This document shows, piece by piece, positions 3,050 through 59,445 of a DNA stretch of 64,000 bases. Within the stretch, counting starts at the first letter, position 1. Each line of letters begins with the position of its first letter. The stretch is from Nemertoderma westbladi (Eukaryota > Animalia > Xenacoelomorpha): assembly GCA_032718475.1 (NCBI GenBank), contig JAUCBJ010007299.1, positions 1 to 64,000 of the forward strand. The letters run 5' to 3'. Below the pieces are notes generated by a model, which was not told the DNA's origin, ran no database searches, and saw only the letters and a list, made by a program, of their open reading frames with translations. Position numbers and translations under genes: made by a program.

Positions 3050-3882
3050 TTCGGTAGTTGTAAGTCAAGTGAAGTGAGTGTAAAAGTATCGAGTTTACCG
3101 TATTTGTATAAAACGGTACTAATTACAGTCATATAAAATTAGCCTACCGGCCGATTTTATAGCAGATGGATAAAATTAGCCTAAACGGCCAATTTTACAG
3201 CAAATAAATGTCACGGAATAAGTATATAATAAAATTAGCCTAGCGGCCAATTTTACAACAAATAAATCGGATAACGATATGCGTTATCAAAAGGTAAATT
3301 AAATACAATAATACGGACTAATTCAGCAATGAACAAAGAAATCATACGGAATGCATAAATACTTGAGACAGTGGAACCCACAATAATTTTAACTAATACG
3401 GTAATGCCTAACTTATTTATGCAACTTTTCGAACTCACCCACTCCAATAATTCTCCAGAAAAACAGATTCCCAGATACAAACCGGACGTGAACCTTTCCG
3501 TTTTTAACGTTGCGGACGAAACGCGATTTTCCCAACCAAAGTTGTTGGGTTATCTATCTCCCAAACTTGCTAAACACGGTCTTGCTCCCGTTACAGTCTA
3601 GAAATGAGTTCTGAATCCTGAAAAACAAAAGAGTTAGGTTTTACTTTACGAAATTTTGTACCGGTACAATATGGTATTTAAACCCTTTTAAACACCGGTA
3701 TTCAATTCCAAAATATTTTACACGCGGTTCAAATCAAATTTTATTTCAAAAAATTAGCACTTAGCTAATCAAATATAAATTTTTACCTCAAAATACAAAA
3801 TTTTCAAATAACTTTAGTCCTACCGAACCGTAGTTCAGTAAAACATATTCCTACTAAATTGGAGAGATACGCCTATTCCTAC

Positions 3883-10822: not shown

Positions 10823-12010
10823 TGTTCGCGCTTTCAGACCTTTGGCAGTTTAACCCGCCAAATTAGGATGTCTTCTAGATAATAATTCGCTTTTAGCCTA
10901 TGACAAGTATTTGATTCACTACACTAGTCGAAACCAATCTGTGCGCGATCATTCACCCGCTGGATATACCCGGGAGATTGGGTTCGACGGCTTAATCGTA
11001 TTGCTATGTAGGCCTAATGTATTATTCGACTGACAGTATTATATAATCTCTGACAATATTATTCACCTTCGGGAAATATTAACAGTTCCTTTTGGACGTG
11101 GCGCTCTATCTATATAAACAGAGCTATGACTTAAACTACATGCAACGATATGGCTTAGTTACAATTCACATATATGGCGCATTCTTTAGGAAATGCTTCG
11201 TTATCAGTCTCACTCATACACAATGCTGCACAATACTGCACACTGATCTGCCGATCGTCACTGATTTTAGTCACATATAAAAGGAACACGGACCGAATCA
11301 TGTAGGGTCTATCAAATAACATTAGATTCACTTCAAACCACTTTAACATAAGTCACAATCGTTATATGTAACCTTTCTCTCTTACCTTCGGTATATCAAG
11401 AATATTGGGTTTTCGGGGTTATTTATCGTTATTCCAAATATAATAATTCATCAACCATATTATAAAGAACTGACAGTAAATAGCAGTATAACAATATAAA
11501 AGTATGCACAGGTTGTTTGATTAGGTATGGTATGTTATGAGTTGAGGTATGTTTAGTTCATTAGTGTGATAACGGATATATGTCCTTATAATTAAGCCTA
11601 CTAGTGTAAGACTAAAAACTGAAAACACGGAGGTGCCAAAAGCCGGTTCTTAGGCTCTGGGCAAAACATAACACTGAACTACTGAGTTTCTGTATACACC
11701 TCCAACACAGAGACAACAAACGCTCTGATTGGTCAACCTGAACAACGATAGAACAAAGAAACAAAGAAACGTCGACGTGGCAATATCAGCTGTTAGCCGT
11801 CGTCATGGTAGCGCCACTGTTTTCAAGAGTATCCAGCTATTGCGTCACGAAATTACGGATTATGTCCTTTAAAGTACACATACAGAAGAAATGACTTTTA
11901 TGTCCTCTAAAACACCAGTACAGTAAGGACACGGCCTTTTTATGCCTGGTAAACCAACTACAGAGTACTTTACGGGAAAATAACCGGCTAATTACGCAAA
12001 AGCTTTTACA
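10823..12010 (-). repeat. 3' LTR of element C
   Basis: Direct repeat of 39525-40712; about 4 substitutions seen by eye. Confidence 0.95.
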
Positions 12011-12113
12011 CCGCTCCCAGAAAATGGGATTTAAGTCTATAAAATATAACAAATCACAGTTTCTAAAATATAAAGATACTCTAAACAGTTAGTCTTTCTT
12101 ACGCAGACGGCGT

Positions 12114-13339: not shown

Positions 13340-15220
13340 TATAGAATTATATTCTCTAAATGCCGTGGATTTTCAAAATTTTATTTTATTCGAATTAACT
13401 TTGTAAAAGATTGCTTTGAATCCTCATTTGTATTTGTTATATCTATTGTACGCCTATCGGTCAAGTGGTTCAGTAGCTCAGTCGGTAGAGCGTTGGAAAT
13501 TATATGTGTAGTAGGTATTGAGTTCGAATCCTAGTAAGTGCGAATTATTTTTTGTGCAGAATTTCAACTCATTTAAATTAACCGCTACAAATTAATTGCA
13601 TTTGTCTGTACCAATGAGACTGTAGTTATTTGATTGTAACCAATGTCGTGCAAGTTATATATTAGCTGGACCAATAGCTATCTTTAAAACCCTGTTAGAA
13701 CCTATAGAACAATCGAGAATTTTCTCGATTGATTGCAGCACAAATTTGCTATATAAAGGTGCGATTTGTTCATTAGTTACTACTTCTCAGATTATCTTAT
13801 CAATATTCTGTCGTGCTTAGTTTATTTCAGATTACATTGTATTATAATTATATCTTCTGTAATAAAGTCAGAATTATCGCTAATCTGCCTTTTCTATCTG
13901 TTTTACCATGATTCACTACGGTGAACAAACCTAAGGGACAGGATGGCCAGCTAGAGATCGGGCCGCAGCAATGAACGGGAACATCGGGGGAATGTAGACC
14001 AGAGACAACCCGCAATACCATCTTGAGTTATTCGCCCATCGCCTAAAAGGTTAGACAGCGTTTGACGCCTTGCTACCCAAGTGTAAGACCGAAGATCATA
14101 AGGTAGAAGTAGTGACACGCTGTGAGCCTAAAATTACATCTTAGGGACTGTACTGTCTTGATTCAGGAAAAACCACAGTAGACCTTCATATTCCTACGGG
14201 TAGAGGGAAAGAGCAGGCAGATACTAGTACGCAGATAGGACGTAGGCACACTGGTACGAAGCATACAAATTGGTAGGGTGCAGCAAACTGTACGCCTAAC
14301 TCTTGCTAAGTACAGGTGTGTGTGCGACTATTTGTAGTACGACAGTGTCCATTGCATTAGAACTTGTAGGCTAGGGGGTTGCTGTGTTTTCACCTGAATT
14401 GGGATTGTACCGTTCAGGCGGTAGGGCAGTTTACAGCTAGGCGCAAATAAATTGAGGCTATTAGGGATACTAACATCTACCGTGTCCCCGCCAACGCCCT
14501 AATAGGAAGTTACCCGGACTACCTGGGTGACTAAAATTCTAGATAGGAGCCAGGATAGCTATTAGTAACTGTACGCCTACAGTAGTAAACTAACACATCT
14601 CTTCTTAGTATCAGGGACCTGGTACCTAAAATTGCCGAATTCTGGGCGTAGCATTAACCTTATGCCTGAATTTGAGTCCTGGAAATACGCAAGAGGGGAA
14701 GGAACCTTATCATTCGTGAGTATTGGACCTACAAGTTACAAAATTAGAATATTCGTAAAATGCACACCGTACCCAGTAATTATATATGTGAAGGAGCAAA
14801 ACTGTTTTTGACCGTTCAGAATTAACACACGCGCGTTAGAAATTATTTACACCTCAAAATATATAAAATTAACTTTTGTCCTTACTGTGTTTTGCCGCTA
14901 GTTAGACATTTCCAAATCTCTGCCTGTACCTAGCTAGCGTCTCTTTCGCCCAACCATATAAATCACACCGCGGCAAAGTATACGAGCCCCTTAGTCCGTC
15001 AGTGAGTCAGCCTGATTTTAGGATTCGCTGCGCGGGATTTTGTTTTATCGAAGTTTGTCTGCTCGTAGACTGTTTTCTGCCTCACCGGTTATAAGAGATC
15101 GATACTGCAATATATTCGCTTACTTAGAGTTTACTGTTTTGGTGAGAAGGTCGGATTTATGATTTGATTTACAAACTTTACAGTAAGATATTGCAGGTAT
15201 TGTTACCGTCTCTTCATATA
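13340..15220 (+). repeat. 5' LTR of element B
   Basis: Near-identical to 29265-31145. CCAAT boxes at about 13610-13675, TATATAAA at 13750-13757, AATAAA at 13861-13866. Confidence 0.96.
13467..13553 (+). ncRNA. tRNA-like Pol III cassette in the 5' LTR of B
   Basis: A box TAGCTCAGTCGG (13474-13485), D-arm GCTC/GAGC, B box GAGTTCGAATCC (13520-13531), T6 (13548-13553). Acceptor and anticodon stems do not pair. Confidence 0.6.
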
Positions 15221-15231
15221 GTAGGAATATG
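15221..15231 (+). promoter_or_regulatory. Non-tRNA primer-binding site of B (GTAGGAATATG)
   Basis: Abuts the LTR, has no TGG, and is the exact complement of LTR-internal CATATTCCTAC (14187-14197). Confidence 0.75.
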
Positions 15232-16020
15232 TTTTACTGAACTACGGTTCGGTAGGACTAAAGTTATTTGAAAATTTTGTATTTTGAGGTAAAAGTTTGT
15301 ATTTGATTAGCTAAGTGCTAATTTTTGAAATAAAATTTGGTTTGAACCGCGTGTAAAATATTTTGGAATTGAATACCGGTGTTTAAAAGGGTTTAAATAC
15401 CATATTGTACCGGTACAAAATTTTTCGTAAAAGTAAAACCTAACTCTTTTGTTTTTTCAGGATTCAGAACTCATTTCTAGACTGTAACGGGAGCAAGACC
15501 GTGTTTAGCAAGTTTGGGAGATAGATAACTCAACAACTTTGGTTGGGAAAATCGCGCTTCGTCCGCAACGTTAAAAACGGAAAGGTTCACGTCCGGTTTG
15601 TATCTGGGAATCTGTTTTTCTGGAGAATTATTGGAGTGGGTGAGTTCGAAAAGTTGCATAAATAAGTTAGGCATTACCGTATTAGTAAAAATTATTGTGG
15701 GTTCCACTGTCTCAAGTATTTATGCATTCCGTATGATTTCTTTGTTCATTGCTGAATTAGTCCGTATTATTGTATTTAATTTACCTTTTGATAACGCATA
15801 TCGTTATCCGATTTAAAATTGGCCGCTAGGCTAATTTTATTATATACTTATTCCGTGACATTTATTTGCTGTAAAATTGGCCGTTTAGGCTAATTTTATC
15901 CATCTGCTATAAAATCGGCCGGTAGGCTAATTTTATATGACTGTAATTAGTACCGTTTAGATATAAATACGGTAAACTCGATACTTTGACACTCACTTTA
16001 CTTGACTTACAACTACCGAA

Positions 16021-18300
16021 ATGAGTGACAAACAAGACTATACGAAGAACACACCTACCGACTATGACTCGTGTGACGCGGATAAGTCAGCAGCGGAAGA
16101 ACAACAGGGGAAGACTCGCGAGCCTACCGAACCTACACCGTGTGCGTCACCAGTACATCCAACGGGAGTACCGGATGCCGTAGTACGAGGCGACGGCAGG
16201 ACCGAGGACTTTCTAACTGTTCCGCAACCTAGATACAGGGAAACGGAGATGGTAAGTTCAGTAGGAAGCCAGGAGAGCGTAGTTAGAAGCGTCGGCGGTT
16301 ACATGGCGCATATTACCAGGAGTATTGGAGAAGGCCAACGCATATTAGACGAGTTAACCGCTCCGATGTCTCGGTTCGAGTTCTACACTCTACAGGTGAG
16401 AGTACAGAGTAAAGTATATAAGTCCGTAGATAACCTAATTGGTCTACAAGATCTAGCTAGACAGAGACAGGATATGGACACTCAGCTTAGAATCCTCGAG
16501 AAACTAATGATCACTAGAGAGAAACTGATTCAGTTTAAGTCGACGATTAGGCAGATACAACAGGAACAAGCGGACCAGTTGTTAGGTGAGTCAGTTTCGG
16601 ACGAATTATTGCAACCCGAGGAAGAACAGGAACTGTACAGGCTAGATGGACAATTGAAACACCTGACGGATCACTTACGCATGTGCGGCGAGGACGTCGG
16701 AGATTGGGAAACCGTGCCGGAGGCTACGAGGGAAACTTCACTCGCACAAATCGAACTGGCACCGGGAACACTAAATCAATCACTGGTGAGTATTCGCAGC
16801 GAAATTGGCGAGGTGAGTATGGCTACGTCAGAAATTGCTCGACAACAGCAGCTCTACAGACAACAACAGGAGATGGAGGAACAAACTGAACTGCTAATGG
16901 CACAAGCAGCAGTACAAGAAGAGAAACTACGTGTTGCGAATGTTGCAAGAATCTCTCATCTGCAAGAACAAGCCGAGTTGGAAGCAGCCGAGATGGAAAG
17001 ATTAGAGTTGGACATTGCACAACAGGCAGCGGCAGCGGCAGCGGCAGCGTCCGAGTTAGAGCGACAAAGGTTAGCTTCAGAAGCGAGAACCGAAATGAAA
17101 AAACGGCAAATAAAGGCTCAATCAGCTATACGACAAGCGGAGTTCGAGGCGCAACAACAACAGACGGAACAACGCGAGAAGGAAGTTAAACTTCATTTCG
17201 AACTCGGGAAGAAGGCGAGAGAATTAGCCAACGCGAAGGAAGATCTGGATCTACAAGCCCGCGATCGATCGATGAGATCTCGTGACGGACATGATTTGGA
17301 CCAGTTAGAGGTAAGGCACCGTCAAATTCAGGAACGAATGAAGGAAGGAAGTGTAGGGGCACCTGGGCGAGAAAGACAACTAGTAAAGGACTTATGTCAA
17401 AGATTCCCTCAAGTAACTCCTATGTTTGCACCGGTTACGACTAAGGAACCTGTTTCGATTGCTGGTAGTAGTAATATTTCTCCTATCCATGGTGCGACGG
17501 AACACAGGTTTGTTATTCCGGACAAGTTTACACCGCCAAGAGCAACGTCATCGCCTATTCCGAAAGTCAAGGTAAGTAACCCGCCGATTACAGATCGTAG
17601 TAGTTTATTAGTCGAACCTGTATTACTGACGACTAAACAGGTGAGTCCACCGTCGACACCTAAACCCGTTACACACTACGCTTACCCAATGACGTTTAGG
17701 CCTTCAAGGCCTTTAGATTCAAACGCTGTCACTCGACCACCGGTTCAGTTTACATCGCAATCTACGACTTCGAGGAAGACTTGTGAGCCTACCGAGCAAC
17801 GGAGACCAGTGGATACGCGACCGTTTAATCAGTTTACATCGCAATCTACGACTTCGAGGAAGACTTGTGAGCCTACCGAGCAACGGAGACCAGTGGATAC
17901 GCGACCGTTTAATCAGTTTACATCGCAATCTACGACTTCGAGGAAGACTTGTGAGCCTACCGAACAACGGAGACCAGTGGATACGCGACCGTTCAACCGG
18001 TTTACATCGCAATCTACGACTTCGAGGAAGACTTGTGAGCCTACCGAACAACGGAGATCAGTGGACGATGTTCCGAAACGAAACGTGAGAATTCGTACGA
18101 CGCAACGGACGCGAACACGTCGACCACCATATCCAGATGATAGTAGTACTTCGAGCGAATCGGATTACCCGAAACGCGAGGTATTTAGAACAGGGGCGGC
18201 CGATGAATACAAACGCGAGCATTCAGACAACTCCTTTGCAGACAATCCTCCACAGAATACACCAACACAGAAGGCGTTACAACCAACGGACGCAATCAGT
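16021..18300 (+). CDS. Gag-Pol of B, exon 1 (760 codons; long coiled-coil/low-complexity N-terminal extension)
   Basis: ORF 16021-18306; its last codon and TAA stop come from the insertion. Homologous to the uninterrupted ORF of A. Confidence 0.9.
17742..18066 (+). repeat. 84-bp (28-aa) coding tandem repeat in gag, about 3.8 copies (about 2.8 in A)
   Basis: FTSQSTTSRKTCEPTEQRRPVDTRPFNQ repeated. Confidence 0.95.
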
Positions 18301-19523
18301 ACCTAAAGAGGTGAGGTCTCTATAAGGGTGCTGATAGCAGGCGGCGGCGGACTCGTGAGGGTCTGGGGACACGTTAAAACCTGCGTCCGTAAGTGCAAGG
18401 GAGATACTTAAGGCCCTCGTGTCTAACGAACCATGAATTGTCATGGTGCCGTGGTACCGTCTAGTCGGCCTGTTGCCGTACTGCCAGTCCTGTACACAGT
18501 AGGGGTGGTGGCATGGTGTGATTTGTGGTTCATGTGGCGTGAACTATGTTTTGTATGTGGGCGATCAGTGGCAGTTTGCTTGGGGCTTGGATGGTTCCAT
18601 TGGCCATCAGCTGTTCCGTTTTTTTGATACTATATGTTATTGTCTCCATGTTCAGCTGATTGGTCTTTGGTGGCATTGGAATAAACTGTCGGGTCTTGAG
18701 CTTTCTGTTGCTGTGGGTACGTGAGTACACGTGATTGTATGTGTGGCCACTGCGAGTGGGTATGGGAACCCTTGCCAGTTGGACAAGACGCCGCTGGTAT
18801 TAGTAGGACCATACTTTACTGCGCCCCAGCATACTTTGTGCACACAAAGTTATTTTACCCTGTCGGTAAAATAAGGTACTCTCGATTTTGCCGTTTGTCG
18901 ATACAATTTTGTCCCCTCTGATTTTGTCTTTCTCGATTTTGACCCCGATTTTGTCTTTACCCGATTATGTCCTCTGTGTGTGCATGGTATGTGTCAGATT
19001 TTGTGTTTACCGTAGTGTACTTGATTTCGTGAACATCTGTTGAGTACACGTGTACAGGACGGGTAAGTGGTTACTTGTTCCTAGCTTTCGAGCTAGTCAG
19101 TATTGTTGAGGAACGGTGTCCCCTCAATACTGCCGGCGAGGCAGGTGAAAACGTGTCAAAATTCCATGTTGGGTAGCGCAAGCCCACATGGGACAAGACC
19201 GTCGGTTAGGCCCAAGGGCGACCTTGGTGCTCGATCGCTATCGACTGGTCCACCTGCCGGTTGACTCTTTGTTATACTTGGAGTTGGCTCAATGTACAGT
19301 CAGGCCACAGTAAGTTGACAGTAGCCGCCCATCTGGCTACACGTTCGACGAGCTGTGCTGGTGTGATCGGGGGACCGAAAACAGAACCCGGGAAGCATCA
19401 GGCCACCCTCCGGCCCGGTCTGATAATAACATCAGTCGGACTGGCCCCAGAGGTGGTGGAACCACGTCCGCCTCGTGGGTGCGCCTCGGAGTTATCGGAG
19501 AGGAGCCCAAAAGGACGAAAGTG
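18301..19523 (+). ncRNA. Group I self-splicing intron (1223 nt) in the gag of element B
   Basis: Follows exon T18300 and ends in G19523. P1 18292-18300/18330-18338 with U.G. P3 19140-47/19251-58. P4 19151-57/19197-202. P5 19162-68/19187-93. P6 19203-07/19233-37. P7 19241-47/19297-302. P8 19259-67/19281-89. J8/7 CAATGTA. Absent from A; excision is in frame. Confidence 0.88.
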
Positions 19524-22500
19524 ACACAACAGTTCGCCGACATCATGCGACCAGTTGTTAACAAGTTGGCTCAGATCGAGGAGCGTCCGGAGGAAGTTCA
19601 AACCGATAGTTCGAGGAACACTGAATTCGAACACAATAGACACCCGAAGGAACCACAAAGACCGGTACCTTCAAAACACCCATCGTATCAGGGAAAAGCG
19701 CCAAGAAGGGATATCAACTAGTGTACCAACCAAGGACGCGAAACTCTGAACGTTGCCGAGGAGATAGCGAAATTCGCAGCCAGACAGGGATTGCCGGTGC
19801 AACAACCACCGAAGTTTTCTGGTAGCTCAAAACACTGGCACACTTTCGTAGACTATATCGAATCTCAGATCGCCGTGTGCGCCTTTACATCACGGGAGAA
19901 GTTTAATTACCTGCTTCAAACGTTGTCAGGAGAACCTAAACGTTTGGCAGAGACCTTCGTTGGTGTACCGGACGCCTTCGAATTAGTGTACGATCGTTTA
20001 ACTTCGATATATGGAGGTACAGTCAGTATGGCCAGGTCAGTAATAGAGGAACTCTGTAAGGGAGGGGCTATCACTAAACCCGTCGACTTATTAAAACTGG
20101 CCGACGAGATAAAGAACGCTATCACTACTTTAAGATCCATTGGACAACTTGACTACGGGAATACCCCTACAGTCCTATTAAAGATCATAGGACGACTCCA
20201 CCATCGACTTCGTCGGGAGTGGAGAAAGATCGAATACCAGCGAGAAGAGCGGGGTGGATTCTTAAAACTAGAGGATGTGTACCTTTTGATATCCAGGGAA
20301 GCAGTTGTAGAAACTCGATCCAACTACACTGACCAGCACATCGTAGCAGAAGGGATCACCTTGCCATCCTCCAACCGACAAAAACCTCAGACAACATCCA
20401 CCAAGACGGCCACATACGCCACATCGACGGAAACCCGACAATTCTCGGACGGTAGTAGAGTATCTGCGCCCATTGGGACAAAACAGACGAGACAACAACT
20501 CAGTACCGACTTCAGCGGCTGCCAATACTGCGAGCATTTGGGCAAGCGGTATATCGGTCACAAGTTGAGAGGTTGTCGACAGTTTCGCGAGTTAAACTCG
20601 GAAGAACGACGGCTGCAGATACGGCCATTGGACTCTTGTTGGCGGTGTACGCGACACGGACACGTCCGTAAAGATTGCCCAAATACCGACACTTGTCCAT
20701 CCTGTGGACGCAACCACAACGGTCTGCTCCACACAGACAGCCACACACCGACAAAACGCTTCGCCAGGGAACACCCGGAAGCAGCAGCGAGATGTGATGC
20801 GGCCTACAGAAAACGAGAATCGAAAACGACTCCGACCTTCGTGACCCATATTGAGGATTGCTTCTCTGAACAACCCGGATCGTCGGACGAAGAGTCAGAA
20901 GACGACGACGTATATTCGGATGGAGATGAACAGCCATCGATCGCGCTTCTGACTACTGACCAACTGAAGGGATTCAGTGTAATTCCGATTAAGATTACTG
21001 GCACAAAGGGGAGTAAGAGAATCTACGCTATTCTAGATTCAGCCTCTTCTCACAGTTACGTGGATGAAAAGATAGCTGACGTCGTGACGGATCTCAGACA
21101 AGGTAAGCGCGTCAGTTATACCGTAAGTAGTATGCACGGACAGCGTGCAATACCAGTGACACGAGTCAAGTTAAACTTAGACTCTCTTCTTCCGAAATCG
21201 CAACACAGCGAGAGGGAGAGGTCTTTGTTACCCTTCAAGGATTTGACCTTTGCGGCCACCAAAGACTTTAGTAACTTACTAGGTCCGGTCCCAGAACAAT
21301 CCTTGAAGGACCGTAAGTATTTCAGACACCTTGGTGTACTCGAATGTCCTGTCAATTATAGATCGGTAGCCATGCTGATCGGGACAGACCAATTCAACCT
21401 ACACCAAGTGTGGGAAACCAGACCATCGGCAGTCGTAGCGGGAAACGCATACGCCTGTAGAACGCCGATAGTGTGGTATACTCGAGCGCCTGTGCGCACA
21501 CTAGACGTAAGTGACGAGGAAGACGATGTACAAAGTACATGTAGTTTATTAACTACAAATTCAATTCATTCCTTCTCACACGACGTGAACCATACTACAC
21601 TACAGTCGACAAAACGTGACAGACGTGTGACTAGTATGATAAGTCACAAGGAGCAGCTAATCCACCAGCGGAGTTTAGAACTTGGGGAGAAGACGAGTCA
21701 GCTAGAGATTCCATCGATGACAGATGATAACGCCGGAAGGCTTGCGAGTCTACCTACCCCAACGACATCAACAATGCACGTCGATATCGATGATGACGCG
21801 TTGAGAAATCATCAAATGGAACAAGCTGCACTGGACAAAGAATTAACGGAGAAGACTATCAGGTGGTTAGAACAAGATACAGCTGAACCTGGTAGCTATG
21901 AACCTTGTATGTCAGAACAGGAGAAACAATCTCTGAAGATCATGGAAGATACTATCCGCCAGACGGAGGACGGACATTATGAGGTAGGGATGTTATGGCG
22001 TAGCCAAAGTCCTAAACTCATAAATAACTACCCACTGGCTTTAAGACGTCTACACTCAATCCGACAGCGTCTATTAAAGGACGAGAAAGCCCATCTGCAG
22101 TACAACACTCAGATGGAGACATATTTGACCAAGGGATACGCTATCCGGATGACTAACCCAGAGATAGTGACTGACCAGACGTACTACTTGCCACATCACT
22201 ACGTGAGACACCCCGACAAACCAGACAAAGTACGTGTAGTCAATGACTGTGCGGCTCTGTTTGAGGGAATGTCCCTCAATAGCGAGTTGATGGATGGACC
22301 AAACATGAATAATTATCTTATGGGGGTGATTATGCGCTTCCGTCAGCGTCAAGTAGCTTTTACTTGTGACGTTGAAGCGATGTTTCACCAAGTGAGAGCG
22401 TTAGAGCGAGACAGAGACAGTTTGCGGTTCCTCTGGTACCTGGAAGGAGACTTAAGTCTACCACCGGCGACTTACCAAATGCAAGTTCGCGTTTTCGGTG

Positions 22501-25500
22501 CCAGGGACAGCCCAAACTGCACGATGTACGCCCTAAAACAAGCCGCTAGGGATCAGAAACACCTGTATGACCCAGAGATAATTAGGATTGTGGAGCGTGA
22601 CTTTTACGTTGACGACGGTTTACAGAGTTGCGACACAGTAGAACGTGCTACAACAGTAGCACATCAATTACGGGACTGCTTAGCGGGCGGAGGTTTTAAC
22701 CTCACCAAATTCGCCTCAAACAGTGCCGAATTAGTAGACTCATTCGGAACGACTGAGCGTGGAGGTGGTGACATAGACCTAGAGTTCGAACCACTACCGA
22801 CGACCAAGGTGTTGGGGCTCTTTTGGGACCCAAACACAGACAACTTTCGAGTGAAAGTGAGACTGGACAGTCAAGAAAACACACTGACAAAGAGATCATG
22901 CTTGTCAAAATTGAGCCGATTGTTCGATCCGTTAGGATTCATCAGTCCAGTAATACTGCAAGCCCGCATTTATATGCGCAGTATTTGGAAGGATGGACTG
23001 ACATGGGACGAGCCGATCTCATCAGACCAAGTGGACTTATGGAAGACCTGGGAGGCGGAATTATCTTCGCTAGAGGATTATTCCATACCCAGAGTTTACT
23101 TTCCATTACAAACAACATTCCCTGACAACTTGGAATTACACTGTTTTTCTGACGCCAGTGACAACGGTTTTGGTGTGGCAGCGTACTTGCGCAGACAAGT
23201 AGACTCAGAAGAATTCGACGTTTCGCTCATTACTTCTAAGGCAAAAACAATGCCTACTAAGTATATGACGACACCACGAGCTGAGCTACAAGCCGCAACA
23301 CTGTCAACCACCATCGTGAACCTCATACAGACAGAACTACAGTCAAGTTTACAGATATTTTATTGGACTGACGCGACGTTGGTTTTATTTTACATAAACA
23401 ACGACACACTTGAATTCAAGACATTCGTAGCTAACCGTCGCGCAGAAATTCTAGACCGTTCAATAAAAGAGGATTGGCGACATTGTCCCGGACCACAAAA
23501 CCCAGCTGATATTGCGTCGCGAGGAATGATGCCTGAGGAATTCTGTAAACCGGAAAACAAAGAATTTTGGCAACACGGACCCCAATTCTTGCAGAAATCG
23601 ACGCAAGATTGGCCACCGTTATACGACAACAAGTCTAACACTATCCCTAAGGACGCCGAAATCAAGAAACCAAAAAAGGGGAAGGCAAAGAAAAAGACGA
23701 CGGCGGCAAAACTCAAGAAAAAACCGAAGGCGAAATGGAAAGATATAACTTCAAAGGTCAAGAGAGGAAGACTTGCGAGCCTTTCTACACCAGACATATC
23801 GCCAGACGGTCAACCAGACACGTTACTAGACGGTCAACCGGACGTTTTGCCAGACATGTCACAAAATGTTCTACCAGACACTAGTAACACATTGACAAAT
23901 AGTAAAGCCGCAGTTTCCCTATTGGAGCGGCCTTCTATTGACAAACAACCAGATACGTTACCAGACGTATCGCCAGACACATTACTAGACAGTCGACTAG
24001 ACATTTTGTCAGAAACATCACAAAATGTTCTACCGGACATTAGTAATGTATCGACTAACAGTAAAGCCGCAGTTTCCCTATTGGAGCGGCCTTGTATTGA
24101 CAAACTACCAATTTTGACACACTTGAGCAACCATAAGCACGGTGAAACCTCATGTATTACAGATGTGGGTAGTACCTACGCTAATGTAAATACAGGTGTT
24201 ACTTTGCGCTCAAGAGACATACCGAACTTGCAACCTATGGTGAAACCTGGGATTAATGTCGGCAGAAAAATAAGTTTACCGAAACCCAGTGACCCCATAG
24301 AGTTCAAACCACCATTAACGATCGACTTACAAAGTACTGACAATCAAGGTAAGAAGACGAAGAAGGACAAATTACTTGTAGACCCGGACGGATCAACAGT
24401 CAACAAGGGAATACTTACCGGCGGACCCGTGGGCCCTTCTAGTAAATCAAAACCTTCCAAAATCTCTATTGACTTACCTGATGACGTCACAAATACTCAC
24501 GTAGATCATATTGTAAACCTAACAGATTCTTGGACAAACTCTTGCCGAAAATTAGCGTGGATTGTACGTTTTGTACAATACGTTAAAGGCAAACGCGACT
24601 TTACACGTCGACTTACATTGGCTGAGATTGACAGGTGTGAGATTAAATTAGTTCGCCATTACCAACTGCGATATTTCGCGCGCGAATTCACATCTATAAA
24701 TCAAGGTCAACCAATCAAGTCGTCACCAATACTGAGTTGGAGTCCGATTATTTATAATGGCTTAATTTGTCATAAATCTCGGCTTCAAAACATTGACTTC
24801 AACACAAACTTTAGATACCCAATAATAATACCGCAACATCACGAACTACAACGTGCAATGATACTGGACGCACATTTACATCTGAAACACGCTGGAAGAC
24901 ACCACTGTCTTTCCTACTTACGTACAAGATTTGTATTGATTAGACCTAGTAAAGCATTAAGTTCAGTGACACGTACGTGTATTATTTGTAAAAAGGTACA
25001 CTCTAGAATAGGTACCCAAGAAATGAGTGAACTTCCACAAGCACGACTTCAAGCATTCAGACCACCTTTTACAGAGACTGGAATTGATTGCTTTGGTCCT
25101 ATACATACGAAACGTGGACGTATACTAGTAAAACGCTGGGGACTGATTTTCACATGTATGTCCAGTAGGGCAGTTCATATTGAACGTGTGATGGATCTTT
25201 CCACCAACGCGTTTATACTAGCACTGCGGCGATTTATCGCTAGACGCGGACTAGTGAAATGCTTGTACTCAGACCAAGGGACAAACTTTGTTGGTGCTCG
25301 GAATGAGATTGCTAGAGCCTTTAAGAAATTAGATCATGATCAAATCTCGAACGAACTACAACCTCACAAGATTGTTTGGAAGTTTAATCCTCCAGATAGT
25401 CCTTGGAGAGGCGGAGTCTGGGAGAGACTGATTAGATCTATAAAGACAGCCATGGCAAAGGTCATTCCAGTAAACCACATATTGACAGACGACCAACTGA

Positions 25501-26009
25501 CAACATTGTTTGTTGAAATCGAGGCAATACTAAATACTAGACCAATAGTATTAGTACCCGATGACAAACAATCTCAGTTTGCTTTGACACCGGCACACCT
25601 GCTAATGCAGGCACCGACCACATTGACGCCGATTTCTATTCCAATAGAAAGCGATAGCTACGGTAGAAAAGCGTGGAAAATCACGCAACTACTGGCTAAC
25701 AAATTCTGGGAAATATGGCAAAACCATTATTTGCCCTCTATTTCTGCCAGAACAACTTGGTATAATAACACCCGCGCATTGAAGCCGGGAGATCACGTGC
25801 TATTAGCGGAAGTGAATCTAAAAAGACGCTTCTGGATAACAGGTGTAATTTTAGCCACACATCCATCTATGGATGGAGTGACAAGAACTGTGACGGTACG
25901 GACAATTGACGGTCGTACAGTAGACAGACCGACTCAACGTCTCGTACTTCTTGAAGAGACTCGTAACGAGTCTGGAGACTACAAATCTCCACCTAATACT
26001 AGTAAATAA
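19524..26009 (+). CDS. Gag-Pol of B, exon 2: gag core, three zinc knuckles, protease, RT, RNase H, integrase (one in-frame TAG at 19719-19721)
   Basis: Gag PPKFSG; knuckles CWRCTRHGHVRKDC and CPSCGRNHNGLLH; protease ILDSASSHSY; RT YLPHH and YVDD; RNase H FSDAS, PRAELQAA, NPADIASRG; integrase GIDCFGP, SDQGTNF, GGVWERLI. Confidence 0.95.
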
Positions 26010-26669
26010 TTAGGAGTTTACAAATAGATTTCCACGTACCTGTACACCGTAGTAAGGACAGCGGTAGAATTCCATTGTCTTTATATGTGAACATTGAGGG
26101 TGGTACCCTTATGTGTCACATAGGAGCGGGATTTGTAGGTATAAGAAATGGAATTCTACTTGGAACTCACAATATTGAGACATTTTCGAAATTTTAGACA
26201 ATCCATTTGGATTTGAAAAATTTTTAAAATTTTCTCCAGTGAATAGATTTCAGGGTACTGTCGGGTGGAACTTAAAATTAGAGAAACAAGAGAGGAAGAC
26301 TTGCGAGCCTTTCTTAAAATTTTAATTAAATTTTACACGGTCTTGTTTCAATAAGTTACGTCAAAATAGACTCCCCTATATTTATTACTAATTCTTGACT
26401 GCTTATTTTCTGATAATAGTTTGGGATCAAAAAGTGAGTATTTTAGACTCACAGCCAGTTTAGCCCAAAATTCGTTTTTATTTCGGCAAAAAATTTTAGA
26501 TAAGAAGCAGCGTGTCATTAAAGAAACCCTAGATCTTAGGCTATGGGTAGGAGGTTAGAGCGTTGTCGAGCCCAAAGGGCAGACGAAACTCTCACGTCTC
26601 CTCACAACTAACTACAAACTCTGTTGTATTCCCTCTAGTAGTAATGATTATGTAACTACACCTCTAATT

Positions 26670-28372
26670 ATGGAGAAGGAGATACAAGGAGAGCCGAGAT
26701 GGGGATATGATATCCAAGAGGAGGCAGCAGCGCCATTCGAAAGATTTGGAGCCAAGGACTACACTATATTTGGTATAAAGGAATTATCAGAAAGTACAGC
26801 GAAGCTCGCAAAGACAGTAATGCCTTTACTCGAGCAGGATTTAGTATATTTCGAGACGTGTATCTTTGCTGTGCAGGATCTCTTATCGAAAGACCATCTA
26901 TGTTTACATTGTTACCCTATGAAGGAGAACGTATCGTGGAGATTACGGAAGAATCACGGCAGACGCGCGCGCCTATCGGTCACCTTGGTGATGATTTCGA
27001 AGTAACTACTACGATCGCCGACGATCCTTTAGAGGAACTTCTTGAGATAGAAAGGAACCTCCCGAAGAAATCTCAGACGGAGATTCGACAACTTGAAGCA
27101 ACAGATGCTATAGTTTGTATACAACCTTCAGAAACCTACCAACCCATAGACCCAGATGATTACGATTATAGTGTGGGAGGAAGCGCTCGACCGATTGGAG
27201 ATCTTATATACGAACAAGTGTGGTACCCTGCCAATACGATGTGTAGTAAATGTGGCGTCGCTGGACATCATATGACAAAGTGCAGTGGAAAGCACATTAC
27301 TACGACTCAGCTAATCTGTGGATGGTGTGGGGATCAAGGGTCTCATACCTTTTATACTTGCTGGAGATTTATGGCTCAATGTACTTATTGCAATATAAAA
27401 GGACATCGAGCATCTGAATGCCAACTAAGAGACATACCTTATGAACACGAATCTGTAAAACTCGTGAGGAAGTTATTTGATGAGTGGGAAGATTTAGCCG
27501 ACGAACATGTATCAGCACAAAGAAGACGGTTTCCGATGAGAGCGCATCTCGGATTTTGGGCGGTAAATCCTCAAACGATGATGTCGGAAGGATATATCTC
27601 CGCTATGCCCCAATATGACGAACTTATCGAGGTAGTCGATATTTTGCCCCACGACAGTGGATTCCGAGTGGTGCGCGAGTATCTACTACAGATTCACCCG
27701 GATAACAAAAACACGTGGAATTTTCAGAAAGTCGTTAACCGCATTACGTATGGTGAATTCGATCGTTTCCGAACTGAAAAGCGGAATAAAGGAGCTTGGT
27801 TAACCGTCGCATGGGCGTACCGAGCCGCGTTTTACCATAAACGTATACGAGCGAGCGTATTCGAGGAAGAGGAGGTCCTAGAGGCGACAAATATACCAGC
27901 CACTCCGGTTGCGCCGTCTGCACGTCACCCTCGGGAGGACGGACAGGGTAGGATCATACGGGTCCAGAAAGTGGGCCAACAATTAAAGAAAATTATTAAT
28001 GTAGAAGAACGCAAGGGAGTTGAGCCGACCATTCGAGTTACTCGGGATACGGTATCGCTTCCAAGAGAACCAGTAGGAGGATCGGGACATACACCAGCTG
28101 ATCAACAGGGGGCGCAAGCTACTCTTGGGTCTGCGTCGTCCGCCTTTCGCGCGTTCCCAGACGTTCTACCAACTGTAGTGACAACTGATCGGTCACGAGG
28201 AATCGGTCGAGGTTTTGGGATGCCAAATAGACGAATTTGCGAGGAAATAGTCGCACCGTCTCTCAACGTCCAAACGAAACCAGTGACTCGCCCCACGAGT
28301 CCCATATCGCGAGCAAAGTCACCTGTGCGCAGTTTTCGAGGACGCGGCAGGGCTCGATCAACTAAGCGATAA
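26670..28372 (+). CDS. Accessory ORF downstream of integrase with three CCHC zinc knuckles (two overlapping frames, probably one frameshifted ORF)
   Basis: CSKCGVAGHHMTKC, CGWCGDQGSHTFYTC, CTYCNIKGHRASEC; Arg-rich C-terminus; no evident TM or signal segment. Confidence 0.7.
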
Positions 28373-29264
28373 AAGGGAGGGCAAGGGTGGACGGAAGACT
28401 CGTGAGCCTTTCTTGTGAATTTGTGATTTATTTGAATTTATATTTATATTTGTGTTTATTCCGAACTTAAGCAATTTGTATTGTTCCGAATTTATGAAAT
28501 TTAGAAAGTTTATATTTAGAAGGAACTTATATTTGAAAGATTTATGTTTCATATTTGAGATGCAAAGGAGTTTATATTATTCTAAACTTATGCAGTTTAT
28601 ATTTATATTTAGTAAAGATTTATATTTAGTAAGAATTTACATTTTATATTTGTGATTATTCCGAACTTATGCAATTTATATTGTTCCGAATATTATGCAA
28701 TTTACATTTCATAGGCAGTATTTACAGTGAAACAGAAAGTAAGAGTAGATGGAAGACTCGTGGGCCTTTCTTATAGTTTTATTTGTAAAGTGTTATATTT
28801 TGTATTTAGAAAGTATTATAGTCAGAAAATTTTGTGCTTAGAAAGACTCATATTTGTAATTATTCCAAACTTATGCAATCTACATTTAGGTACGAAAGTA
28901 TTTGTAATTACTTGAATTTATGCAATATTTGAGATGCAATAGTAGATGGAAGACTCGCGAGCCTTTCTTATTGTTTTCATTTATTTGTATTTGTAATTGT
29001 TTGAATTTATGCAATATTGAGATGCAATAGATTTATATTGGTGAATTTAATTTAGATTTATATTGTACTTACTTAGTAAAGCCTTAAATACGTAAAGTTT
29101 GAATTTGTAATTATTTTTGTATCGAATCATTACGTAGAAAGGAAGTATTATTTGAAATTTAATTTGTAAATATGTAAGTACGCCCTAAGTGTTCTATAGT
29201 TTGATTGATTATTGGTGAAAACCGTATATTTTATGCACGATAATATCCTGTTTTCATGGAGCGG

Positions 29265-31145
29265 TATAGAATTATATTCTCTAAATGCCGTGGATTTTCA
29301 AAATTTTATTTTATTCGAATTAACTTTGTAAAAGATTGCTTTGAATCCTCATTTGTATTTGTTATATCTATTGTACGCCTATCGGTCAAGTGGTTCAGTA
29401 GCTCAGTCGGTAGAGCGTTGGAAATTATATGTGTAGTAGGTATTGAGTTCGAATCCTAGTAAGTGCGAATTATTTTTTGTGCAGAATTTCAACTCATTTA
29501 AATTAACCGCTACAAATTAATTGCATTTGTCTGTACCAATGAGACTGTAGTTATTTGATTGTAACCAATGTCGTGCAAGTTATATATTAGCTGGACCAAT
29601 AGCTATCTTTAAAACCCTGTTAGAACCTATAGAACAATCGAGAATTTTCTCGATTGATTGCAGCACAAATTTGCTATATAAAGGTGCGATTTGTTCATTA
29701 GTTACTACTTCTCAGATTATCTTATCAATATTCTGTCGTGCTTAGTTTATTTCAGATTACATTGTATTATAATTATATCTTCTGTAATAAAGTCAGAATT
29801 ATCGCTAATCTGCCTTTTCTATCTGTTTTACCATGATTCACTACGGTGAACAAACCTAAGGGACAGGATGGCCAGCTAGAGATCGGGCCGCAGCAATGAA
29901 CGGGAACATCGGGGGAATGTAGACCAGAGACAACCCGCAATACCATCTTGAGTTATTCGCCCATCGCCTAAAAGGTTAGACAGCGTTTGACGCCTTGCTA
30001 CCCAAGTGTAAGACCAAAGATCATAAGGTAGAAGTAGTGACACGCTGTGAGCCTAAAATTACATCTTAGGGACTGTACTGTCTTGATTCAGGAAAAACCA
30101 CAGTAGACCTTCATATTCCTACGGGTAGAGGGAAAGAGCAGGCAGATACTAGTACGCAGATAGGACGTAGGCACACCGGTACGAAGCATACAAATTGGTA
30201 GGGTGCAGCAAACTGTACGCCTAACTCTTGCTAAGTACAGGTGTGTGTGCGACTATTTGTAGTACGACAGTGTCCATTGCATTAGAACTTGTAGGCTAGG
30301 GGGTTGCTGTGTTTTCACCTGAATTGGGATTGTACCGTTCAGGCGGTAGGGCAGTTTACAGCTAGGCGCAAATAAATTGAGGCTATTAGGGATACTAACA
30401 TCTACCGTGTCCCCGCCAACGCCCTAATAGGAAGTTACCCGGACTACCTGGGTGACTAAAATTCTAGATAGGAGCCAGGATAGCTATTAGTAACTGTACG
30501 CCTACAGTAGTAAACTAACACATCTCTTCTTAGTATCAGGGACCTGGTACCTAAAATTGCCGAATTCTGGGCGTAGCATTAACCTTATGCCTGAATTTGA
30601 GTCCTGGAAATACGCAAGAGGGGAAGGAACCTTATCATTCGTGAGTATTGGACCTACAAGTTACAAAATTAGAATATTCGTAAAATGCACACCGTACCCA
30701 GTAATTATATATGTGAAGGAGCAAAACTGTTTTTGACCGTTCAGAATTAACACACGCGCGTTAGAAATTATTTACACCTCAAAATATATAAAATTAACTT
30801 TTGTCCTTACTGTGTTTTGCCGCTAGTTAGACATCTCCAAATCTCTGCCTGTACCTAGCTAGCGTCTCTTTCGCCCAACCATATAAATCACACCGCGGCA
30901 AAGTATACGAGCCCCTTAGTCCGTCAGTGAGTCAGCCTGATTTTAGGATTCGCTGCGCGGGATTTTGTTTTATCGAAGTTTGTCTGCTCGTAGACTGTTT
31001 TCTGCCTCACCGGTTATAAGAGATCGATACTGCAATATATTCGCTTACTTAGAGTTTACTGTTTTGGTGAGAAGGTCGGATTTATGATTTGATTTACAAA
31101 CTTTACAGTAAGATATTGCAGGTATTGTTACCGTCTCTTCGAATA
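29265..31145 (+). repeat. 3' LTR of element B (includes a tRNA-like cassette at 29392-29478)
   Basis: Direct repeat of 13340-15220; at least 3 internal substitutions plus a 2-nt difference near the end. Confidence 0.96.
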
Positions 31146-37341: not shown

Positions 37342-38674
37342 GTTTGATGGTACAGTTGAATGCCTACTGCTATATTACAGTTAAAGCAAGTCTAGTAATT
37401 CAGTATCACTGTTAGCCTAGTAATTAATTACCGATACTGCTACTCAGTGTAGCGTGATATATATATAATATATTAGAATACCGGTATGCTTATAGTATAT
37501 ATATAAGTATTATTACAGACTAGATTTGTCCAGAGTACCGGTATATAATTTTAGCACAAATATATATAAATATATAATAGGCCTATCATGAATACCGGTA
37601 TGCAGTTTACACTTATAGTGTATATATATAAGTATAATTACAGACTAGAATTAATTACAGAGTACCGGTATGATTTCAACCTAAAATTTATAGAAATAAA
37701 TATAATAAGCCTATTGTAAATACCGGTATGTCAATTATTTTAAATAATTGAATTTCTGAATTTTAAGGGTTACTTGGTTACTTTAACTTACTTTATTACC
37801 GTTATTTAAGCAGTAGTCCAACTGATATTGAGACCTAATTGTTGTATGGCAGGCCTACTATTTATAAATCGTTTGAGTTGATTTATAATATATATATACC
37901 CGTTGAAATGGGTTTTTGTCAATGTTGAAATAAATGTTATTATTTCTGGGGGAGTCACTACACATAAGCTGTGCGCTCTCAGTGGAGTGCTACTTGTTAG
38001 ACACTAAAACAAATAATTCTAATTTACCTAAGTTACTTAATACTACAAATTACGTACAATTCGGGTTGAGATTACAATCTCTAAATAAACACAAAAATTT
38101 ACAAAAAACACAAATACGAATTTTTAGGGTAATTTTACAAGAAGTCTACAAACCAGCCTAACAAAGGGTTAGAAATCTGGTTATTACAACGGACAGGGTA
38201 CTGCGGTATTTGAAAATAATACGTAGTAGTAAATACACTGCGTTGTCCAGATAGGAAAATACCACCGCCTGACGACCTATAGCCGTATCGCTATAGGTAC
38301 TACGTTATGTATCACGGAGTGTTCCTACCTAGAAGTTAATAGAGCTAATCGAACGTGCCTATCAACCACTTTACAACACAAATATAATGCCTACACTAAT
38401 TACTTTCGGAAAGCACTGTACACTAAACCCTAAATTAGGTACGAGTACTTGTACAACATATAATCAGTAGTTAAATATACTTGAACAGCCAAAAGAACCA
38501 CGGTATCTGCTGGAGTGACCGATGCACAAAATCACCAGTCTTTACCTACGCCAAGCAGCCCGTGTAGTACCGGGGTTAATTTAACTATAGCGGTATGTAT
38601 AACAAACACAATTACTGTAGGAACAAACTTGGGGAATGAATGTTGCGAATAATCGCATAAACTCTGAATAATAA

Positions 38675-39245
38675 ATATTACGCTACGCGTACAGACCATT
38701 CAAACAAAATGCAGACCAAATACTGACAGACTACTATCAAGCCTAAACAAACTACGGTATATGCAGACTCCGAAATGATTAGGTAGTATGCGTTCTAACC
38801 CAGTAGTACGACTTGTTCTTTAATTGGGGGTTTACCTTACAGCATTCGCTGCCCCTACTTCCTAACCGTTCTTTATCGGACAAGTGATCTACACACGCTG
38901 CAATCCGTTCAGACCTAATAACAGCCAGACAACTATCCAGCCTACAAATTATCTAAATAAATATTATACGCTACCCGTACAGACTTACACAAACAAAGTA
39001 CAGACTCAACGATGGCAGACTACTCTCAAGCCTAAATAAACTACAGGACATGCAGACTCCGAAATGATTAGGTAGTATGCGTTCTAACCCAGTAGTACGA
39101 CTTATTCTTTAGTTGGGGGTTTACCTTACAGTATTGGCTGCCCCTACTTCCTAACCGTTCTTTATCGGACAGATGATCTACACACACTGCAATCCGTTCA
39201 GACTTAACAACAATCAGACAACAGCTCAGCCTACAAATTGTCTGT
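38675..39245. repeat. About 289-bp tandem duplication in the 5' UTR of C
   Basis: gcagactccgaaatgattaggtagtatgcg occurs at 38763 and 39052. Confidence 0.85.
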
Positions 39246-39512
39246 ACAATCTGATCAGGCTTACACGCCTTCTGTTCAATACTGGCCTACAAACAAATAA
39301 AACTTGACAGAAATAAGTAAAAATCTCAATAAAAAACCAGGGCGGGCCCTCCCTGATTAATTATTAAGGCCTACCGGTATATAATTATCAAAATCGAATA
39401 ATACTGCTGTACCTGTACTGCTGTAGGTACCGGTCCGGGTGGTTAGGTAGTCAGGCCTACTGGGTACCGGTTGCCGGTACTTCAGCTTTATTGCCTACTG
39501 CAATACAGAAGC

Positions 39513-39524
39513 TATATCCGTTAT
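39513..39524 (-). promoter_or_regulatory. Non-tRNA primer-binding site of C (ATAACGGATATA)
   Basis: Abuts the 5' LTR and is the exact complement of LTR-internal TATATCCGTTAT (40282-40271, minus). Confidence 0.75.
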
Positions 39525-40712
39525 TGTTCGCGCTTTCAGACCTTTGGCAGTTTAACCCGCCAAATTAGGATGTCTTCTAGATAATAATTCGCTTTTAGCC
39601 TATGACAAGTATTTGATTCATTACACTAGTCGAAACCAATCTGTGCGCGATCATTCACCCGCTGGATATACCCGGGAGATTGGGTTCGACGGCTTAATCG
39701 TATTGCTATGTAGGCCTAATGTATTATTCGACTGACAGTATTATATAATCTCTGACAATATTATTCACCTTCGGGAAATATTAACAGTTCCTTTTGGACA
39801 TGGCGCTCTATCTATATAAACAGAGCTATGACTTAAACTACATGCAACGATATGGCTTAGTTACAATTCACATATATGGCGCATTCTTTAGGAAATGCTT
39901 CGTTATCAGTCTCACTCATACACAATGCTGCACAATACTGCACACTGATCTGCCGATCTTCACTGATTTTAGTCACATATAAAAGGAACACGGACCGAAT
40001 CATGTAGGGTCTATCAAATAACATTAGATTCACTTCAAACCACTTTAACATAAGTCACAATCGTTATATGTAACCTTTCTCTCTTACCTTCGGTATATCA
40101 AGAATATTGGGTTTTCGGGGTTATTTATCGTTATTCCAAATATAATAATTCATCAACCATATTATAAAGAACTGACAGTAAATAGCAGTATAACAATATA
40201 AAAGTATGCACAGGTTGTTTGATTAGGTATGGTATGTTATGAGTTGAGGTATGTTTAGTTCATTAGTGTGATAACGGATATATGTCCTTATAATTAAGCC
40301 TACTAGTGTAAGACTAAAAACTGAAAACACGGAGGTGCCAAAAGCCGGTTCTTAGGCTCTGGGCAAAACATAACACTGAACTACTGAGTTTCTGTATACA
40401 CCTCCAACACAGAGACAACAAACGCTCTGATTGGTCAACCTGAACAACGAGAGAACAAAGAAACAAAGAAACGTCGACGTGGCAATATCAGCTGTTAGCC
40501 GTCGTCATGGTAGCGCCACTGTTTTCAAGAGTATCCAGCTATTGCGTCACGAAATTACGGATTATGTCCTTTAAAGTACACATACAGAAGAAATGACTTT
40601 TATGTCCTCTAAAACACCAGTACAGTAAGGACACGGCCTTTTTATGCCTGGTAAACCAACTACAGAGTACTTTACGGGAAAATAACCGGCTAATTACGCA
40701 AAAGCTTTTACA
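39525..40712 (-). repeat. 5' LTR of element C
   Basis: Direct repeat of 10823-12010; TG...CA termini. Confidence 0.95.
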
Positions 40713-41150
40713 ACTACTACTACTATCGGCATGCTGCATTGCAGCTGCATTATATAAATTACATATATATCAGGGATGATGTGCCGGCTTGTCGACAAAA
40801 TTGCGCCGCCACAACTCCCCATCACCCATGACATTTGCCAGATTATCCGTATCTTCAAAGCCAATTTCCTTTAAGAGACTTCTCAAGAAAGTCATGAGCT
40901 AATACATAAATGCAACATTATTGTGAACAATAAGATCCCACTATATGCGGAAATACATAATATCGGCCAAATAAATTGGATGTATTGGCGTCTGGCCCTG
41001 CAACGAAACACCTCCACAGATCGTGATCAACATGTAACTCCCCCTTATCAGGACTTGTCGTATAGCTGCATTTCGGGAATTTCAATGCTGACCATCTCGT
41101 TTCCTTTCGCGAGCCCTCTGCAATAGACGAGCTCAAGCACGGATTTATCA
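40713..41150 (-). mobile_element. Possible decayed LINE (RTE-like) 3' ends with a (TAG)n tail
   Basis: Fragments TFLRSLLKEIGFEDTDNLANVMGDGELWRRNFV and DHDLWRCFV resemble the DRxxWRxxV C-terminus. A TAG microsatellite follows. Confidence 0.35.
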
Positions 41151-46409: not shown

Positions 46410-47376
46410 ATGCATTGCCAGCCTGCTCCACAGCATATCAACTGCGACCACTCACGGTCACCCATGTTACTCTACAATATGCATTGCCAGCCTGCTCCAC
46501 AGCCTATCAACTGCGACCACTCACGGTCACCCATGTTACTCCACAATATGCATTGCCAGCCTGCTCCATAGCATATCAACTTCGATCACTCACGGTCACC
46601 CATGTTACTCCTCAATATACATTGCCAGCCTGCTCCACAGCATATCAACTGGGATCACTCACGGTCACCCATGTTACTCCACAATATGCATTGCCAGCCT
46701 GCTCCACAACATATCAACTGCGATCACTCACGGTCACCCATGTTACTCCTCAATATACATTGCCAGCCTGCTCCACAACATATCAACTGCGATCACTCAC
46801 GGTCACCCATGTTACTCCTCAATATACATTGCCAGCCTGCTCCACAACATATCAACTGCGATTACTCACGGTCACCCATGTTACTCCACAATATACATTG
46901 CCAGCCTGCTCCACAGCATATCAACTGCGATCACTCACGGTCACCCATGTTACTCCTCAATATACATTGCCAGCCTGCTCCACAGCATATCAACTGGGAT
47001 CACTCAAGGTCACCCATGTTACTCCACAATATGCATTGCCAGCCTGCTCCACAACATATCAACTGCGACCACTCACGGTCACCCATGTTACTCCACAATA
47101 TGCATTGCCAGCCTGCTCCACAGCATATCAACTGCGATCACTCACGGTCACCCATGTTACTCCACAATATGCATTGCCAGCCTGCTCCACAACATATCAA
47201 CTGCGACCACTCACGGTCACCCATGTTACTCCACAATATGCATTGCCAGCCTGCTCCACAGCATATAAACTGCGATCACTCACGGTCACCCATGTTACTC
47301 CACAATATGCATTGCCAGCCTGCTCCGCAATGTATAAACTGTGATCACTCTCGATCATCCATGTTACTCCACAATT
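46410..47376. repeat. 69-bp minisatellite, about 14 copies
   Basis: Unit tgcattgccagcctgctccacagcatatcaactgcgatcactcacggtcacccatgttactccacaata. Confidence 0.95.
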
Positions 47377-59333: not shown

Positions 59334-59445
59334 TTCGGTACCGGTACTTACTTGGTTGGTACCGTACTGTCGTCACTATGGTAACTGGTAGGCCAATGTG
59401 GTGGTGATTGATGTCTGTCTGTCTATGCCAACTGTCTAGTGCATA

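Follow-up and report, generated by a model that had tools for sequence, protein, structure and literature searches.

Probable self-priming from its own LTR in an RT-less BEL/Pao element of Nemertoderma westbladi

Self-priming has been demonstrated for the retrotransposon Tf1 and predicted for Tf1 relatives and one plant copia lineage. In Tf1, the first 11 bases pair with the PBS, and RNase H cuts between bases 11 and 12 (PMC7175516). In the Tf1/sushi group, which includes Tf1 and Tf2 of Schizosaccharomyces pombe, Tj1 and Tosmo, the PBS is described as lying directly after the 5′ LTR, with about 11 nt complementary to the element's own LTR and no tRNA site (PMC7175516, PMC4600332, bioRxiv 2022.12.06.519325). 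A published criterion for a predicted self-primer asks for at least 10 bp of pairing at 0-5 bp from the LTR; by this test, self-priming was also predicted beyond the Tf1 group or at its margin, in plant Tcn1 chromoviruses and in the TAR elements (Houba, Osr-1) of Ty1/copia (PMC6317226). Fungal GalEa copia elements and bivalve TRIMs are likewise described as having no tRNA PBS (PMC5445492, PMC6934838). We found no report of BEL/Pao self-priming in the literature outside Repbase reports, GyDB and subscription journals, and the terms PBS, priming and tRNA do not occur in PMC554778 or PMC3118150.

We analyzed a 64,000-nt stretch of the Nemertoderma westbladi genome (contig JAUCBJ010007299.1, positions 1 to 64,000), hereafter the window. 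It holds element C, element B, which is nested in C, and a B-like element, A, which is cut off by the left end of the window (Table 1). C and B resemble the Tf1/sushi group in the position of the PBS, in its complementarity to their own LTR and in having no tRNA site; measured by the published self-primer test, the match is 12 nt in C and 11 nt in B, both at offset 0. The PBS of C also starts with the same five letters as that of Tf1, ATAAC (PMC11042837), an identity that may be due to chance. The Tf1/sushi group, however, belongs to the Ty3/gypsy (chromovirus) RT lineage, whereas B carries Pao domains and its relatives are of BEL/Pao type, which places them outside that group. Tf1 takes its primer from the first 11 nt of the RNA, whereas promoter-like motifs suggest that the primer is often internal here, and many of the relatives described below would need splicing to obtain a primer, unlike Tf1. 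Tf1 also requires a three-duplex "pretzel" (bioRxiv 2022.12.06.519325), whereas the predicted folds of C and B consist of a U5 stem and a leader hairpin. Tcn1 and TAR are plant elements of other superfamilies, for which the available text of PMC6317226 describes no splice-junction primer. In GalEa and the TRIMs, a hairpin inside the internal region is described, with no LTR complement (PMC5445492, PMC6934838), whereas here the partner lies in the LTR. Finally, Achilles of the olive fly is a BEL/Pao element with TG..CA LTRs, as in C, but its 18-nt PBS is complementary to tRNA-Tyr (PMC4580426), whereas a TGG site is missing from C, B, A and 15 relatives.

Table 1. Positions of the features of elements C and B in the window
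Feature	Position	Strand	Remarks
Element C, 5′ LTR	39525..40712	-	1188 nt, TG..CA; self-comparison of the window
Element C, 3′ LTR	10823..12010	-	primer letters at 11580-11569
Target-site duplication GTAGT of C	left copy 40713..40717, right copy 10822-10818	-	
PPT-position motif GGAGCGG of C	12011..12017	-	
Single ORF of C, 1408 aa	32918..37144	-	gag (DUF1759) and protease region
PBS of C, ATAACGGATATA	39513..39524	-	adjoins 5′ LTR; no TGG
Predicted self-primer of C, TATATCCGTTAT	40271..40282	-	LTR positions 431-442; putative role
Second partial PBS partner, TATATCC	39664..39670	-	LTR 1043-1049; predicted competing local fold
Predicted leader hairpin directly after PBS of C	39480..39512	-	fold with helix enforced
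Candidate promoter of C	40319..40434	-	motif scan; CCAAT box (LTR 279), initiator-like TCAGTT (LTR 389)
Element B, nested in C	13340..31145	+	LTRs 13340-15220 and 29265-31145
gag-pol ORF of B	19722-26009	+	Pao domains
Predicted self-primer of B	14187..14197	+	LTR 848-858
PBS of B	15221..15231	+	11/11 complementary to own LTR

Structure and coding content of the elements

Element C is a young BEL/Pao insertion, recently mobile yet defective and non-autonomous. Its two LTRs differ at 4 of 1188 nt, and GTAGT stands on both flanks. C and B each have the LTRs and 5-nt target duplication of BEL/Pao elements (TG..CA and GTAGT in C; TA..TA and GCGTA in B, whose LTRs are 1881 nt long), and both encode the Pao-type gag domain DUF1759 (E value 3e-12 in C and 8e-11 in B). 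After the protease region, the ORF of C jumps straight to the end of RNase H: compared with the pol of B, it is 22% identical over gag-protease and then matches only the end of RNase H. We also performed tblastn with the pol of B and found no match to RT or integrase anywhere inside C. An autonomous BEL/Pao element would encode RT, RNase H and integrase, and C does not. Because C lacks RT, it cannot prime alone and requires a partner. B need not be that partner, since the LTR termini differ and B is the 24th match to the gag-protease of C, to which many metagenome elements are at least as close. The same rank and the 22% identity do not mark C and B as sisters. The 2.4-kb leader of C contains two 286-nt tandem copies (window 38670-39243).

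The pol of B includes Peptidase_A17, DUF5641, DUF1759 and integrase zinc domains and an RT similar to those of BEL/Pao. Its nearest proteins are about 43% identical, and the named ones are mostly from marine invertebrates. Following pol is a 553-aa ORF that contains three zinc-knuckle-like CCHC motifs and gave no hit in Pfam (window 26711-28372, plus strand). A segment of about 1.2 kb in the gag region of B (window 18303-19524, plus strand) splits the frame and is missing from A; we rejected it as an intron because the junction in A is not at GT..AG. Both A and B end in TA..TA instead of TG..CA, and two of the relatives (L018 and L043) also end in TA. In U3 of the A and B LTRs, a tRNA-like stretch with A-box-like and B-box-like motifs followed by a T run (window 13465-13560, plus strand, and the other A/B LTRs) was not called by ARAGORN or Rfam; it is possibly a captured SINE or a Pol III signal.

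Complementarity between the PBS and the LTR of element C

The 12 nt that abut the 5′ LTR of C, ATAACGGATATA (39524-39513), are the exact reverse complement of TATATCCGTTAT (40282-40271) within that LTR. An earlier note on this DNA, made from its letters alone, had reported this complementarity, and its letters and coordinates were right for both LTRs; the primer letters recur at 11580-11569 in the 3′ LTR, and none of the four LTR differences falls there. The same note stated that pairing ends exactly at the LTR edge, where we indeed found C opposite A, and that the LTR of C is unrelated to that of A and B, between which BLAST detected no similarity.

To assess the chance level of this match, we counted it in three settings. 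The 12-mer match occurred in 4 of 20,000 dinucleotide-shuffled LTRs at offset 0 and in 12 of 20,000 when the site was allowed to start 0-5 nt from the LTR. Across the window, with obvious inverted repeats masked, 87 of 99,618 positions had a 12-nt inverted match within the upstream 1188 nt; the unmasked count, 0.4%, is inflated by palindromes. For a position set beforehand, the match therefore still far exceeds chance expectation, at 2e-4 to 9e-4, and the figure of about 7e-5 first proposed was too low by 3 to 12 times. The PBS of C matches 17 other LTRs over 7 nt at most, and 17 other PBSs match the LTR of C over 8 nt at most. In B, the 11-nt match occurred in 13 of 20,000 shuffles at offset 0 and in 88 of 20,000 at 0-5 nt. 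At the LTR edge, the PBS of A matches over 9 nt only; an exact copy of the 11-nt site of B lies 28 nt further on, inside a 28-nt diverged duplication of the LTR-end/PBS junction (window 3845-3882, minus strand).

Neither ARAGORN nor Rfam found a tRNA gene or an Rfam family in the window, and Rfam (E value up to 1) found none in the 5′ LTR of B, so that a self-encoded tRNA primer is not supported. A splice-made primer was looked for in C and none was found. Run X1, whose contigs are of uncertain kind, spans C and its flank widely and includes many variant contigs. In one of these (depth 16.6 of 20.1), the PBS of C is changed at positions 1 and 5; either the LTR partner has changed with it, as co-variation would require, or the variant speaks against strict pairing. 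The LTR of C contains AGGACATA three times (positions 105, 143 and 425; window 40281-40608, minus strand), the third copy lying directly before the primer segment and overlapping it.

PBS-LTR matches among BEL/Pao relatives

We aligned the RT-RNase H of B with 24 of 120 listed homologues and fetched 80 metagenome loci; a search of viral contigs yielded 0 loci. A direct repeat more than 3.5 kb apart was present in 34 of the 80. The 15 relatives used are those for which the LTR end could be set, in three cases by hand (L043, L047 and L079); they include L032, whose 3′ copy stops at the contig end and agrees with its sister L049. Three loci with a repeat that had no clean LTR end (L034, L046 and L070) and 16 with a 3′ copy running off the contig were left out. 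The RTs of the relatives are 36-44% identical to that of B. None of 18 elements (C, B, A and the 15 relatives) has TGG, the mark of a tRNA (CCA-type) site, in the first 8 nt after the LTR.

A self-match to the element's own LTR, 10-15 nt long and starting 0-4 nt after the LTR end, was found in 12 of the 15 relatives, and only 1 of 294 mismatched PBS-LTR pairs searched in the same way reached 10 nt. Three of the 12 self-matches are contiguous (L031, L036 and L076). The other nine run across a predicted GT..AG junction (L007, L008, L018, L020, L022, L026, L043, L049 and L078, with L007 and L078 forming one group), which points to pairing at the RNA level; LTR splicing in these relatives is predicted from such motifs. 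The three misses were not counted and seem explicable by eye: an acceptor failed the filter in L032, a 12-nt match lies 9 nt out in L047 and one G-U pair is needed in L079. We also performed a blind search on six loci with an unset LTR end. With 196 candidate ends and a looser acceptor filter, it returned a junction match after an ..ACA end in five of the six, two of them near-copies of counted loci and three new (L012, L013 and L021), and three extra hits that represent background; L069 had no junction match. On a quick RT tree, in which rows are unlabelled, B sits on a long branch and the group is not bounded by any tRNA-type element, the contiguous and spliced types are intermixed, with 4 changes for each (a number as low in 255 and 226 of 500 shuffles).

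Several sequence features recur around the paired sites. The first two letters of the site are GT or AT in 12 of 13 families, against an expected share of 0.17; the binomial value of 8e-9 is overstated, as the families are related and the offset was picked by best match. After these two letters, the site is not conserved between families. As an R region would demand, the motif A[AT]TAAA follows the primer on its downstream side in 11 of 14 elements; in one, B, it is upstream, and the LTR of C has none. A TATA-like box precedes the primer in 6 of 14 elements, at 31 nt in L008, 122-167 nt in four others and 435-437 nt in B, where it is the only such box. The 31-nt spacing would put the primer of L008 at the RNA start; the spacing fits such a start in this one of the six, and the other five place the primer about 90-400 nt inside the transcript. 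The CCAAT box and the initiator-like TCAGTT in the LTR of C make up a candidate promoter about 40 nt before the primer.

GGAGCGG precedes the 3′ LTR in both C and B, as the earlier note had said in calling it an atypical PPT shared by both. A pyrimidine-containing PPT is, however, the rule among the relatives (GGGGCCGG, GGGGAGCCA, GGCGGGCGGAA) and so does not mark a special clade; the exact GGAGCGG is absent from the 15 relatives used. Two unrelated LTRs do have the same geometry, as the proposal of natural co-variation states; what C and B share across deep lineages is the position of the pairing, which differs from co-variation base by base. The proposed self-priming of BEL/Pao elements is supported, with limits on the clade: C and B may not be sisters, the pairing trait is far wider than the window's two families, and no group boundary was found. 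Of the two outcomes that had been named as refuting, neither appeared: matches are far more frequent than in shuffled and mismatched controls, and none of the elements has a TGG site, although a tRNA fragment may still act as the primer.

Proposed priming mechanism and alternative explanations

We propose that C, which lacks RT and integrase, primes minus-strand DNA with its own RNA in a Tf1-like manner, likely using the enzymes of a partner, and we give this reading a probability of about 75%. Folding back of the transcript would bring the LTR segment into a duplex with the PBS. This duplex would then be cut at its 3′ edge by the RNase H of a partner RT, behind ...AT in C and behind ...AC or ...AT in nearly all relatives, and the new 3′-OH would prime copying from the LTR edge. 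An R region, bounded by the cut and the poly(A) site, could serve for strand transfer. Many relatives would gain their primer segment only once splicing had removed an LTR intron, whereas the primers of C and of B would be contiguous, without splicing. The primer may often be internal to the RNA, with the leader hairpin replacing the third "pretzel" duplex.

Folding predictions were carried out with different RNA starts. The helix of B had a probability of 0.9-1.0 when the RNA started 0 or 30 nt before the primer and of about 0 with 100 or 420 nt upstream; the only TATA-like box of B is 437 nt upstream. For C, RNA starting at the primer gave probabilities of 0.97, 0.33, 0.14 and 0 with 20, 60, 120 and 200 nt of leader, and the value fell below 0.01 once at least 20 nt upstream of the primer were included. 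Folding thus favours a transcript start within about 10 nt of the primer in C, whereas the motifs imply a start about 40 nt upstream in C and about 400 nt in B. In the predicted fold, the U5 segment holding TATATCC competes for the PBS of C, and in a fold of 39440-40300 the PBS-LTR helix does not form. Both C and B are predicted to form a U5 stem and a leader folding on itself, though long-range folding is unreliable. Folding support for the helix of C is fragile, and these predictions neither prove nor exclude a helix in the particle.

The competing folds bear on another explanation, in which the LTR-leader helix is real and acts in packaging, dimerisation, translation control or a conformational switch, and priming falls to something else, such as a protein, a tRNA fragment or a small RNA of the host. 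The second partial partner in U5 and the leader hairpin fit such a role, as do the TATA-like boxes that, unlike in Tf1, place the primer inside the transcript in five of six elements. We nevertheless consider it unlikely, as in all positive cases the helix begins within 0-4 nt of the LTR end, the point at which a minus-strand primer has to stop, and the helices resemble known primers in their 10-15 bp, with the first two letters conserved, the rest not and no TGG. The match in C could instead be due to chance or be vestigial, the trait being real in the relatives and the copy in C not under selection. The defectiveness of C, the related contig that differs at 2 of 12 PBS positions and the recurrence of TATATCC and AGGACATA in its LTR, which raises the local chance, can be read in this way. 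Against this stand the low chance, 2e-4 to 9e-4, of a match at a predetermined site and the geometry shared with B and 12 relatives; given the recent transposition of C (4 of 1188 differences, intact duplication), its cis-signals should also have worked, and we judge an accidental or vestigial match very improbable.

Fold-back copying during reverse transcription might also leave complementarity as a functionless scar, and the diverged LTR-end/PBS duplication in A indicates that copying errors do occur. A scar would decay, however, whereas the match is perfect in many families with RTs 36-44% identical to that of B, and it spans a predicted splice junction in nine relatives. Persistence across families largely refutes this origin, to which we assign almost no weight.

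Priming of C by its own RNA may be part of a wider pattern. We see slightly better than even odds that a large and widespread branch of animal BEL/Pao elements does without tRNA priming and uses an internal primer from its own RNA that always ends in AC or AT, most often by way of a host-spliced LTR intron, such that the spliceosome would act as a replication licence; the lineages of C and B would have switched to an intron-free primer more than once. If true, this would add a third superfamily, common in marine animals, and make tRNA-free priming a repeated solution. It would bear on which came first, self-priming or tRNA priming, a question raised in PMC3601003, and would explain the failure of PBS-based annotation on such elements. 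It would also imply escape from tRNA-fragment control and offer, as a substrate for testing, a short RNA with a conserved dinucleotide at the cut site. The pairing is kept in the defective C and in this respect behaves as a cis-signal.

Elsewhere in the window, TBCC-domain protein 1 is encoded in one uninterrupted frame (59440-61155, plus strand) with at most 44% identity to database relatives; from 61264, about 99 copies of a 21-nt unit follow in tandem. A further tandem array, at 46410-47375, consists of about 14 copies of a 69-nt unit.
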